From assembly GCF_013167455.1 (NCBI RefSeq), contig NZ_CP038328.1: 64,000 bases of DNA. One strand, 5' to 3'. Shown piece after piece: positions 27,001 through 30,000 of this stretch (position 1 is its first letter; each line of letters starts with the position of its first letter). This DNA is from Escherichia coli O157:H7. Its GTDB lineage: Bacteria; Pseudomonadota; Gammaproteobacteria; Enterobacterales; Enterobacteriaceae. Made by a program: the position numbers.

Positions 27001-30000
27001 ATCAAAAAAGTATAAGCCGATACCATTAGAAGCAATTGAGGCTAAGGGGGATTCAGCTTTTGTTTATAAAATGTTAAAAGGATTTGCTAGAGTCAACGAT
27101 GGTAAAGTTCGCGTTTCTAATTCTATGGTAAATGGTTTAGAAATCGTTGACTGTCTGATCTATGAGTTAAAATAAGAAATCTCTTACTGGGTATCATTAT
27201 TGTTTAAATGACTTTTGATTTTCAATAATCAACTTGTCATAATTAAGTCACCGGAGTTTGAACTCCTCCGGTGACTTCTGCGCTAAACGGGGACGTTTAT
27301 GCGCACATACAATCTAAACTATCTTCTCCCGTCACAGATGCAGAAATGCACCTGCGATTTTCTTTATCCAGCGTTTGACCTCTGCGGAGGTGAAGCGTGA
27401 ACCTCCCACAAGACGGCATCAAACTGCATCGCGGTAACTTCACCGCTATCGGTCAGCAGCTCCAGCCTTATTTGGAAGACGGCAAGTGCTTTCGCATGGT
27501 GCTTAAACCGTGGCGCGAGAGACGCAGTCTTTCCCAGAATGCACTTAGCCACATGTGGTACAGCGAAATCAGTGAATACCTTATCCGCAGGGGGAAATCG
27601 TTCGCTACCGCAGCATGGGTAAAAGATGCTCTCAAACACACATACCTCGGTTATGAAACCAAGGACCTGGTTGATGTCGTAACCGGCGAAATCACTACTA
27701 TCCAGTCGTTACGCCATACCTCCGATCTTGATACCGGAGAGATGTATGTCTTCCTGTGTAAGGTTGAAGCCTGGGCGATGAATATTGGCTGCCACCTGAC
27801 TATTCCGCAGAGCTGCGAGTTCCAGCTGCTGCGCGACAAGCAGGAGGCGTAATGGCTACACCGCTTATTCGTGTCATGAACGGACACATCTACAGAGTAC
27901 CAAATCGTCGTAAGCGTAAGCCTGAGCTAAAACCATCCGAAATACCAACACTGCTCGGATATACCGCCAGCCTGGTTGATAAAAAATGGTTGCGACTGGC
28001 AGCAAGGAGGAATCATGGCTGATTTGAGAAAAGCAGCGCGTGGTCGCGAATGCCAGGTAAGAATCCCTGGCGTATGCAATGGCAACCCTGAAACGTCTGT
28101 ACTGGCACATATCCGGCTGGCTGGACTGTGTGGCACCGGTATTAAACCGCCAGACCTTATTGCCACCATTGCCTGTTCTGCCTGTCACGACGAAATCGAC
28201 CGCCGCACGCATTTTGTCGATGCTGAGTACGCAAAAGAATGCGCGCTGGAAGGTATGGCGAGAACGCAGGTTATCTGGCTGAAAGAGGGGGTAATCAAGG
28301 CGTGAATACCTACAGCATCACATTACCCTGGCCTCCGAGCAATAATCGCTATTACCGCCATAATCGCGGGCGCACGCACGTCAGCGCAGAGGGGCAGGCA
28401 TACCGCGATAACGTCGCCCGAATCATTAAAAACGCAATGCTGGATATCGGCCTGGCTATGCCTGTGAAAATCCGCATTGAGTGCCACATGCCGGATCGCC
28501 GTCGCCGTGACCTGGATAATCTGCAAAAAGCCGCTTTTGACGCACTCACTAAAGCAGGTTTCTGGCTGGATGATGCTCAGGTCGTTGATTACCGCGTTGT
28601 GAAGATGCCTGTTACCAAAGGTGGGAGGCTGGAACTGACCATCACCGAAATGGGGAATGAATGATGTTTGAGTTTAATATGGCAGAACTTCTTCGCCACC
28701 GCTGGGGGCGTCTGCGCTTATATCGTTTCCCCGGTTCTGTTTTGACCGATTACCGAATACTGAAGAATTACGCCAAAACCCTGACAGGAGCAGGAGTATG
28801 AAGTCAGAGATAACAATCAACTAATACTGTTTTGTTGATTTTTGCTTGTAATTGGCGTTCTGGTCTGATTTTTGTGGAGTAAGTTGATGCGTGATATTCA
28901 GATGGTTCTTGAGCGTTGGGGAGCGTGGGCGGCTAATAATCATGAAGATGTGACCTGGTCGTCCATTGCCGCCGGTTTTAAGGGACTGATCCCCGAAAAA
29001 GTAAAATCACGCCCGCAGTGCTGTGACGATGATGCGATGGTGATATGCGGGTGTATAGCCCGCCTTTACCGGAACAATCGCGATCTGCATGACTTGCTGG
29101 TTGATTATTACGTGTTGGGGGAGACGTTCATGGCGCTGGCACGGAAACATGGGTGCTCTGACACCTGTATAGGTAAACGCCTTCACAAAGCGGAGGGGAT
29201 TGTTGAAGGCATGCTGATGATGCTGGGAGTGAGGCTTGAGATGGATCGGTATGTTGAGCGTGAATTGCCGGGAGGGAGAACCTCTGTATTTTATCAGCGA
29301 AAAAATAGTTTACGATCGTAAAAATCTGCATATCATGATAAGAGTGGTTACATTGCCACGCTGCTTAACCCGCCGATGCGCGGGTTTTTTTGTACCCAGA
29401 ATCCTGTGAGCTATACGGAAAGTACACAGAAAGGAAGGTGCGACCACAATTAATAACAAAATCTTAAAAATTGCACATGGCACTATTAGTTTTCTAAATA
29501 TTGTGTATTTTTTGTATTGCAGGATGACCCTGTAACGAAGTTTGCGTAACAGCATTTTGCTCTACGAGTTTGCCAGCCTCCCCCAGTGGCTGGCTTTTTT
29601 ATGTCCGTAGCGTCAAAGCAGCAATGTCGCTGGGGCGTCGTGCAATTGGCGTTGAGCTGGAGACTGAACGTTTTGAGCAGACGGTCAGGGAAGTTCAGGA
29701 TTTAGTCAGTCAGAACGGATGATATTGCAGGATTAGTTACGTACCGTTATTATCCTGCGCCCGGCCCTTTAGCTCAGTGGTGAGAGCGAGCGACTCATAA
29801 TCGCCAGGTCGCTGGTTCAAATCCAGCAAGGGCCACCATATTACATACCGCTATTAGCTCATCGGGACAGAGCGCCAGCCTTCGAAGCTGGCTGCGCGGG
29901 GTTCAAGTCCCCGATGGCGGTCCATTATCGGTATTCAGCGTTGTTAGCTCAGCCGGACAGAGCAATTGCCTTCTAAGCAATCGGTCACTGGTCCGAATCC

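Follow-up and report, generated by a model that had tools for sequence, protein, structure and literature searches.

The DNA directly behind the late terminator of a prophage in Escherichia coli O157:H7 raises the question of what a short methyltransferase-like tail is doing there: whether it is the relic of a lost gene, and if so, of which gene, and how the remainder disappeared. The prophage is stx-negative, Sp15-like, and located at yehV, and it was analyzed within a stretch of 64,000 nucleotides (hereafter the window). Under RefSeq/PGAP, positions 29609-29722 are listed as a pseudogene, "DNA methylase; incomplete; missing N-terminus". The remnant is real, but it is an ordinary pseudogene fragment that was already known from public annotation; it matters little in itself, and its value is that of a marker. 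With a probability of roughly 0.9, we consider positions 29612-29722 to be a non-functional 3' fragment of a gene of the M.EcoGII family, left behind when a Q module was fused to that gene at codon 317.

The homology itself is clear. When an intact phage methyltransferase of 352 amino acids was compared with the window using tblastn, residues 316-352 aligned to positions 29609-29719 (E = 7.6e-15), in line with the initial annotation, which had recognized a methyltransferase C-terminus here. This was the sole significant match in the 64-kb window (next best E = 0.064), and the same search with the full protein found the N-terminal part of the gene nowhere in the window. The remnant (29612..29722, plus strand) corresponds to codons 317-352 and the stop codon of an M.EcoGII-type β-class N6-adenine DNA methyltransferase, lacking motifs IV and I. 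Its reading frame, ...LFYVRSVKAAMSLGRRAIGVELETERFEQTVREVQDLVSQNG*, spans 36 codons from the first homologous codon, GTC (Val317) at 29612, to a TGA at 29720-29722. In a blastp alignment, 32 of the 36 amino acids were identical to residues 317-352 of the methyltransferase of phage Stx2a_WGPS2, and the nucleotide similarity to this phage continued from the remnant through three tRNA genes (94.9% identity over 29612-30059). The remnant of the 933W-type phage VT2phi_272 was 100% identical. In profile searches, the Pfam domain N6_N4_Mtase (PF01555) matched only at its very end (positions 196-220 of 221) and below its gathering cut-off (13.4 bits against 26.7; E = 0.075), while a search of the remnant against NCBIfam gave no match. 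The tail had originally been placed at 29603-29722, of which the end is correct; the start is not, as homology begins at 29612 and positions 29603-29611 (codons VRS) are still part of the terminator module rather than of the methyltransferase gene.

An intact counterpart occupies the same position in a related phage. Stx2a_WGPS2 (NC_049941.1) carries a complete methyltransferase CDS of 1059 bp directly upstream of ileZ-argN-argO-stx2AB, which bears out the expectation that comparison with related prophages would reveal an intact gene. The encoded protein matches N6_N4_Mtase over residues 29-340 (E = 9.4e-44, 150.4 bits). It is 97.7% identical to the methyltransferase of phage 1720a-02, which has been named a very similar homologue of M.EcoGII (PMC5778455), and in an alignment of 348 positions it shares 93.4% identity with M.EcoGII, whose sequence was machine-read from the supplement of PMC11551740 and contains OCR artefacts. 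M.EcoGII is a non-specific adenine methyltransferase that appears to be located on a cryptic prophage (PMC5778455). The remnant peptide VKAAMSLGRRAIGVELETERFEQTVREVQDL was identical to the C-terminus of M.EcoGII at 29 of 33 positions, with one gap that is probably a machine-reading artefact of the source text. Judged by these similarities, the parent gene of the remnant is an M.EcoGII/M.EcoGI-type β-class adenine methyltransferase gene.

The likeness to M.EcoGII and M.EcoGI is confined to the C-terminal sequence. M.EcoGII and the WGPS2 protein are both β-class and prophage-borne, and have a DPPY motif at the N-terminus and an FxGxG motif at the C-terminus, whereas the remnant is reduced to the final 36 of some 350 codons, with both motifs gone. 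Motif IV (DPPY), part of VTDPPYF at residues 33-39 of the intact homologue, had no tblastn match in the window. The AdoMet-binding motif I (FxGxG) is absent from the remnant, as the break falls directly after it: the intact protein reads ...DFFMGSGST/VKAA..., and the window ...GWLFYVRS/VKAA.... Since both the catalytic and the cofactor motif are lost, methylation by the remnant is excluded in principle on the basis of its sequence. By the same reading, the remnant is descended from a member of the β-class family and is not itself a member. Among solved structures, there was none of a close relative, only of distant β-class methyltransferases. The partial homology at the genomic position of the intact gene, together with the loss of start codon, ribosome-binding site, and essential motifs, marks the remnant as a 5'-truncated pseudogene.

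Intact methyltransferase genes are abundant in E. coli prophages, occurring in 1916 of 5426 genomes. The gene lies downstream of the Q region in WGPS2, SfV, and, in truncated form, PhiR49_2, and the window shows the corresponding order of Q, PR'-tR', and remnant; this position is an observation of the present analysis and not a published family criterion. In SfV, the late operon runs from Q over a terminator, a small orf (orf47), and the methyltransferase gene to the holin and lysis genes. In lambdoid phages with the intact gene, it is the first cargo gene of appreciable size in the late operon under Q control, and it is followed by ileZ-argN-argO and, in Stx2 phages, by stx2AB.

The DNA to the left of the remnant forms a module of the Q933W/H-19B type. 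The antiterminator gene Q (28887..29321, plus strand; Pfam Phage_antitermQ, E = 1.5e-51) coincides with a PGAP CDS at 28887-29321 in an identical O157:H7 locus, and is 97.6% identical at the nucleotide level to that of the Stx2a phage VT2phi_272. Overlapping its end, a promoter scan detected a PR'-like late promoter (29309..29336, plus strand; TTTACG, a 16-nt spacer, and TATCAT), whose assignment we infer from homology. A start near 29343 would yield an RNA of 258 nt that ends at the T-run at 29600, the same length from PR' to tR' as mapped for StxS in strain Sakai (PMC7547250). StxS has been characterized in Stx1 phages and VT2-Sakai (PMC7547250). Over the 218 nt of positions 29392-29609, the window matches Stx1 phages without a difference (100% identity) and VT2-Sakai at 95.5%, and on this basis we predict a homologue of StxS, a short PR'-initiated and tR'-terminated transcript, at 29343..29600 (plus strand).

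The late terminator tR' (29572..29600, plus strand), supported by its sequence and predicted fold, is the hairpin that had been noted before, and it proved real. It has a G+C-rich stem of 7 bp (GCCAGCC at 29572-29578 and GGCTGGC at 29588-29594), a loop of 9 nt, and a T6 run at 29595-29600; our terminator scan missed it, as its loop limit was 8 nt. "Terminator" features are annotated under the matching DNA in AP000422.1 (VT2-Sakai) and AM051322.1 (Nil3). Of the two, coordinates were compared for the tR' of Nil3, which lies at 1554-1622 of its locus, about 60 nt upstream of the hairpin. A terminator about 258 nt past a PR'-like site, and identity to known StxS loci, point to membership of the tR'/StxS locus type.

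The end of this module could be placed by comparing the Stx1 phage H-19B with phages carrying the intact gene. H-19B is identical to the window through 29609, after which it diverges into DNA upstream of stx1. The segment 29601..29611 (plus strand) thus consists of the last 9 nt of the module (29601-29609) and a 2-nt junction (29610-29611). Up to 29609, the late regions of H-19B and Sp15 share the Q-PR'-StxS-tR' module of the window without a difference, but past the junction they have the stx1 cassette, with neither a methyltransferase remnant nor tRNA genes. As the module ends at 29609 (within about 2 nt) also in H-19B, where it abuts stx1, the scar is best described as a module junction. 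Only two right-hand partners of the module were seen among 291 phage records that hold it.

The junction in the window, GTCCGTAGC/GTCAAAGC, is identical in phages of the 933W, Sakai, and WGPS8 types and in the O157 chromosome; 933W, Sakai Sp5, and some 230 further phage records all have it. 933W-type phages, VT2-Sakai (Sp5), TL-2011c, P13374, and other Stx2a phages have the same remnant as the window; unlike in these phages, the remnant of the window sits in a prophage without toxin genes. As a marker, the remnant shows where the Q933W-type late-control module ends on its right, with a precision of 2 nt. It also suggests that Stx2 phages of the 933W/Sp5 type share with the toxin-less yehV prophage a single ancestral joining event, which destroyed an M.EcoGII-like hypermethylase. 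Speculatively, loss of the methyltransferase may affect how these phages cope with host restriction.

Two other readings of the junction were rejected. MAFFT aligned the T-run with the methyltransferase codons GAT TTT TTC ATG (DFFM), which would derive it from the lost gene; however, in H-19B the T-run and the 9 nt that follow it occur in the absence of methyltransferase sequence, and BLAST homology starts only at 29612. Likewise, the remnant and tRNA genes do not represent a clean insertion, as the DNA past the junction in H-19B shares no homology with the DNA past argO in 933W and the window; between these phages, homology resumes only after the toxin genes.

We therefore turn to how the two parts came together. 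In the lineage of 933W, Sp5, and Sp15-like prophages, the end of a Q933W-type module (29609) would have been joined non-homologously to the interior of the gene at codon 317, a fusion in which codons 1-316 and the small orf before them would have been lost. What remained would be inert as a protein, having no DPPY motif, FxGxG loop, or translation start signals, and under Q antitermination it would simply form part of the leader RNA in front of the tRNA genes. Its persistence may be owed to its small size, its close linkage to the tRNA promoter, and its inheritance together with the junction. In the phages Stx2a_WGPS2, Stx2a_1447, and 1720a-02 and in Stx2c phages, the gene has the same place with respect to the tRNA genes and the toxin slot, but these phages differ in their Q region and have the full 352 codons preceded by the small orf. 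Compared with the WGPS2 type, the window has a Q933W-type PR'-StxS-tR' segment in place of the first 1.4 kb.

The most economical account would be a deletion in place, in which an ancestor with Q933W-PR'-tR', the small orf, and the full gene lost everything from tR' to codon 316 in one step. Intact genes are common enough for such an ancestor, and both flanks are present in the intact arrangement: positions 29331-29391 match positions 1535-1595 of the WGPS2 locus (L002) at 84%, and 29612 onward matches its position 3004 onward at 95%. The 220 bp in between (29392-29611), however, have no counterpart in the 1408 bp that they replace in WGPS2, suggesting a replacement rather than a pure deletion. 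Moreover, Stx1 phages have the identical module end next to unrelated DNA, and the restriction of the module to two right-hand partners also argues against loss in place. A composite query of the module and the intact gene was nowhere more than 83% covered in 5,426 complete E. coli genomes, which leaves an in-place deletion without an extant precursor; the module upstream of the intact gene was absent from every E. coli genome or phage record searched. We regard deletion in place as rather unlikely. The common end of the module in Stx1 phages, the 220 bp without counterpart, and the lack of a precursor favor a replacement or fusion junction, which fits the compared sequences better than a clean internal deletion. 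Of the "deletion scar" proposed in the initial annotation, the lost gene stands, given the intact gene in synteny elsewhere; as no genome searched had the module upstream of an intact gene, a module junction fits better than a simple deletion.

The phage PhiR49_2, which has no stx, offers a parallel. It also carries a 5'-truncated copy, flanked directly by Q upstream and by the same three tRNA genes downstream, but with a different Q type and an independent breakpoint near codon 255, so that 98 codons (about 255-352) are kept. Trimming of the methyltransferase gene from the Q side has thus happened more than once.

Selection could also have retained the remnant for a role in cis, as promoter context of the tRNA genes, as a leader in tRNA processing, or as a homology patch for swapping Q modules. 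The tRNA genes, all on the plus strand, are ileZ (29763..29838, anticodon CAT; Met according to ARAGORN, Ile in the records), argN (tRNA-Arg, 29848..29924, anticodon TCG), and argO (tRNA-Arg, 29938..30014, anticodon TCT). Their putative sigma-70 promoter (29725..29753, plus strand), read from the sequence as TTGCAG, a 17-nt spacer, and TATTAT, begins 3 nt past the stop codon of the remnant, so that the last codons would fall at around -40 to -60. In the diverged loci of PhiR49_2 and Stx2c phages, the two boxes are conserved with the same spacing, while neighboring positions vary; a consensus scan did not call this promoter, as its -35 box matches 3 of 6 bases, and its activity is predicted from these boxes. 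The RNA of 29601-29762 folds somewhat better than its shuffled versions (z = -2.6; 1 of 200 shuffles as good), so that this segment may have a minor role at the RNA level. However, PhiR49_2 and Stx2c phages lack the main hairpin behind this score (29727-29759), and an Rfam search of 29200-30600 at a permissive E-value matched nothing within the remnant and no StxS family. Stx1 phages, furthermore, manage without the remnant and without the tRNA genes.

The homology-patch variant has evidence of its own. Between the window and the intact WGPS2 allele, 5 differences fall in 29620-29646 and just 1 in 29647-29841, a mosaic as would be left if a crossover had taken place within the remnant. Remnant, spacer, and tRNA genes would then make up some 450 bp with about 95% identity to phages with the intact gene, a patch in which crossovers exchange Q/PR'/StxS modules; the 3' end of the remnant may in addition provide upstream context for the tRNA promoter. 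If this were true, exchange would occur in front of the tRNA and Shiga-toxin cargo, and the clustered differences followed by near-identity would be its footprint. We consider this patch reading unlikely. Retention by selection for a role in cis is likewise unlikely; a use in crossovers follows from homology and is not a selected function. Compared with either, an inert fragment left by module fusion accounts better for the remnant.

That the remnant is a live small gene is very improbable. The frame is open in every allele examined, and a peptide of 32 amino acids from ATG 29624 or 50 amino acids from TTG 29570 could be envisaged. Several records, among them NC_028656.1 and KP682374.1, annotate a "DNA methyltransferase" or "putative DNA methylase" CDS here. 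In NC_028656.1, this CDS has 99 bp and corresponds to the former ORF (MSLGRR..., 29624..29722, plus strand), which is probably untranslated. The frame has no proper start codon, only these two candidates: the TTG falls within the terminator stem, and the internal ATG is not preceded by a Shine-Dalgarno sequence (upstream gtcaaagcagcaATG) and corresponds to CTG in the intact WGPS2 gene. The original description of the tail as ORF-less was therefore right in substance. The peptide would carry no catalytic or cofactor motif, PGAP calls a pseudogene, and 5 of the 6 codons that differ between the window and the Sakai allele are changed non-synonymously. The spurious 33-codon "DNA methyltransferase" CDS in the records is explained by the remnant, and should not be counted as an epigenetic gene.

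A chance resemblance of a short, low-information peptide to methyltransferase C-termini, for which only the sub-threshold Pfam score could be cited, is refuted by the nucleotide, tblastn, and blastp similarity to a full-length gene, running unbroken into shared tRNA genes, by its being the sole such match in the window, and by synteny identical to that of the intact gene.

Finally, none of the remnant alleles seen has a stop or frameshift within the 36 codons, but with at most 8 substitutions this is uninformative on decay. From the Sakai-type allele, the window differs at 8 of 111 nt, affecting the few codons mentioned above. Part of the variation among remnant alleles may represent import by recombination with intact alleles. 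In a BLAST comparison, NZ_CP066753.1 was found to contain two IS1203 copies that are absent from the window, with coordinates agreeing 1:1 from 17520 onward.

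Directly past the late terminator, the window carries the 3' end of a DNA methyltransferase gene (29612-29722, plus strand). The initial annotation had taken 29603-29722 for the C-terminal tail of such an enzyme, in a frame that translates as ...LFYVRSVKAAMSLGRRAIGVELETERFEQTVREVQDLVSQNG* and ends at the TGA at 29720-29722; no minus-strand ORF of at least 25 amino acids overlapping this interval was found in an ORF scan. The Pfam profile N6_N4_Mtase matched the fragment marginally (E = 0.075; score 13.4 bits, cut-off 26.7); the aligned part, positions 196-220 of 221, is the very end of the profile. 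Whether this was a chance match was in doubt from Pfam alone, and comparison with real genes settled the question. When the 39-aa tail was used as a tblastn query, 289 of 50,697 phage records were matched. Some of the matches were exact copies in Stx2a phages; at the other end of the range, SfV, cdtI, phiO18P and other phages carry full-length genes labelled as DNA methyltransferases. Conversely, the intact 352-aa methyltransferase of phage Stx2a_WGPS2 (NC_049941.1; hereafter WGPS2) gave a single significant tblastn match in the 64-kb window, with residues 316-352 on 29609-29719 (E = 7.6e-15; next best E = 0.064), and no other pieces of the gene were detected there. The corresponding DNA of WGPS2, from codon 317 of the intact gene through the three tRNA genes that follow it there, shares 94.9% nucleotide identity with 29612-30059. 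These comparisons confirm the original observation, the interpretation of which was essentially right.

Similarity allows a more precise name for the gene, M.EcoGII-type. In WGPS2, a 1059-bp CDS lies immediately 5' of ileZ-argN-argO-stx2A-stx2B, and its product matches N6_N4_Mtase over residues 29-340 (9.4e-44) with a beta-class layout (VTDPPYF towards the N-terminal end, DFFMGSGST towards the C-terminal end). This product shares 93.4% of 348 aligned positions with M.EcoGII, whose sequence is given with small machine-reading artefacts in a supplement (PMC11551740). Its identity to the phage 1720a-02 methyltransferase, which has been named as a very similar M.EcoGII homologue (PMC5778455), is 97.7%. 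M.EcoGII reportedly stays silent in the lysogen and is toxic under constitutive expression, and its switching-on at induction has been suggested (PMC5778455). The gene order in SfV (Q, terminator, orf47, methyltransferase, terminator, holin) places the methyltransferase gene in the Q-antiterminated late operon, which would fit such regulation. Near-full-length copies are present in 1916 of 5426 complete E. coli genomes.

What survives in the window is the stretch Val317-Gly352 with its stop codon; 32 of the 36 residues are identical to the WGPS2 protein and 29 of 33 to M.EcoGII. As the break falls directly 3' of the FxGxG loop (...DFFMGSGST/VKAA... in the intact protein, ...GWLFYVRS/VKAA... 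in the window), both the catalytic and the AdoMet-binding motif are absent. Only two possible starts were found: a TTG within the terminator stem, and an internal ATG at 29624, which lacks a Shine-Dalgarno sequence and is CTG in the intact WGPS2 gene. The remnant is already annotated in public records, as a 33-codon "DNA methyltransferase" CDS in several GenBank records and as "DNA methylase; incomplete; missing N-terminus" (29609-29722) by RefSeq/PGAP, and is without evident function. The fragment matched no Rfam family. Its RNA gave a somewhat more stable predicted fold than shuffled sequences did (z = -2.6), but the main hairpin is not conserved in divergent loci.

Three bases past the stop codon lies a putative promoter (TTGCAG, 17-nt spacer, TATTAT; 29725-29753, plus strand), which ends 9 nt before the tRNA gene ileZ. 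Both boxes and their spacing recur in PhiR49_2 and in Stx2c phages, whose loci are divergent, which suggests a separate promoter for the tRNA genes. The last codons of the remnant thus lie just upstream of this probable promoter, the nearness of which may limit further trimming of the gene. The first tRNA (29763-29838, plus strand) was called Met by ARAGORN (anticodon CAT) and is ileZ, or tRNA-Ile, in phage and RefSeq records; it would read AUA once lysidine-modified.

To the left lies a Q933W/H-19B-type late control module, which starts with the Q gene (Pfam Phage_antitermQ, 1.5e-51). A promoter scan placed a PR'-like promoter at 29309-29336 (plus strand), and sequence and predicted fold gave an intrinsic terminator on the same strand (stem GCCAGCC 29572-29578 and GGCTGGC 29588-29594, 9-nt loop, T6 at 29595-29600), missed by a consensus terminator scan solely through its 8-nt loop limit. 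The predicted PR' start lies 258 nt from the end of the terminator, and the mapped PR'-to-tR' distance of the small RNA StxS in strain Sakai is also 258 nt (PMC7547250). A full predicted StxS locus (29343-29600, plus strand, 258 nt), 100% identical to Stx1 phages over 218 nt, is found within a toxin-gene-free prophage; strains with this prophage may thus produce StxS without stx1. A further terminator-like hairpin with a T-run (29367-29386, plus strand) lies inside the StxS precursor, some 25-45 nt past the predicted PR' start. The segment holding this upstream hairpin (29331-29391) matches WGPS2 (1535-1595 of its locus L002) at 84% and is the only Q-proximal part also kept in the WGPS2 arrangement, where it precedes a small orf and the intact methyltransferase gene.

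The segment 29392-29612 is present in 291 phage records. In Stx1 phages (H-19B, YYZ-2008, CP-1639 and others), 29392-29609 is matched at 100% before divergence into the stx1 upstream region; Stx2a phages run on past the module into the remnant. Since the Stx1-phage match ends at 29609 and methyltransferase homology starts at 29612, the joint is pinned to 29610-29611. An identical junction string in 933W-type, Sakai-type and WGPS8-type phages and the O157 chromosome indicates one ancestral joining event; roughly 230 phage records carry the junction, judged from organism names among the module matches.

The tail had been read as a deletion scar. It is indeed the leftover of a lost gene, intact in WGPS2, but "module junction" describes the scar better. 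We favor a non-homologous fusion or replacement at the module boundary, with a probability of about 0.6. A simple in-place deletion would account for both flanks being partly common to the intact arrangement (29331-29391 with L002 1535-1595 of WGPS2, and 29612 onward with L002 3004 onward), yet appears less likely, because nothing in the 1408 bp of WGPS2 between these flanks corresponds to the 220 bp that stand in their place in the window (29392-29611), and because the module's last base is the same in Stx1 phages. Moreover, no place among 5,426 E. coli genomes covered more than 83% of a composite query of module and intact gene, and the post-junction DNA of H-19B is unrelated to anything past argO. 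In the Stx1, Stx2 and toxin-less arrangements, homology resumes at a common point past the toxin slot (window 30095; 4289 in the Stx2 phage locus L001; 3517 in the H-19B locus L006). The slot, between argO and a NanS-p-like esterase gene, is empty in the window, with some 80 bp (30015-30094) in place of stx2AB (L001 2913-4288) or the H-19B stx1 cassette (L006 2019-3516).

PhiR49_2, a phage without stx, has an independently arisen 5' truncation of this gene (2019-2297 of its locus). Codons ~255-352 remain there under the annotation of a 92-aa "DNA adenine methylase"; they directly follow a Q gene of another type and precede the three tRNA genes found here. This second case shows repeated trimming of the gene from its 5' end at Q-region exchange.

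Against the Sakai allele, the window shows 8 differences over 111 nt of remnant, 10 over 220 nt of module and none over 40 nt of spacer. Six codons of the remnant are changed, five of them non-synonymously, consistent with relaxed constraint. Compared with the intact WGPS2 allele, there are 5 differences in 29620-29646 against 1 in 29647-29841. This mosaic, with five of six differences within the 35 nt adjoining the junction and one more over the next 195 nt, suggests past crossovers between truncated and intact copies.

The window is a stretch of E. coli O157:H7 chromosome, and its positions 29300-30600 are 100% identical to many complete genomes. The prophage, whose integration site adjoins mlrA (yehV), is the Sp15-like, stx-negative prophage already described for O157:H7 (PMC8046923). 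Just downstream of the tRNA genes, Rfam gave strong matches to the sRNA STnc100 (30124-30316, plus strand, 160.7 bits) and the anti-GcvB sRNA AgvB (30317-30378, minus strand, 96.5 bits), at the position where AsxR lies in Sp5; PGAP placed a dubious partial "hypothetical protein" pseudogene (30143-30286, minus strand) over STnc100. Candidate cargo for anti-phage defence comprises a SIR2-family gene (19143-20744, minus strand), adjoining an XRE-type regulator gene (20857-21549), and a HEPN-domain gene in the nin region (26379-26795, plus strand); both were identified through RefSeq's annotation of a locus that is otherwise 99.9% identical. The window lacks two IS1203 (IS629-like) copies that in strain ECP19-598 interrupt a DUF4222 gene and the bet gene (~13216-13221 and ~17520-17524); these aside, the two prophages align collinearly with 99.9-100% identity.
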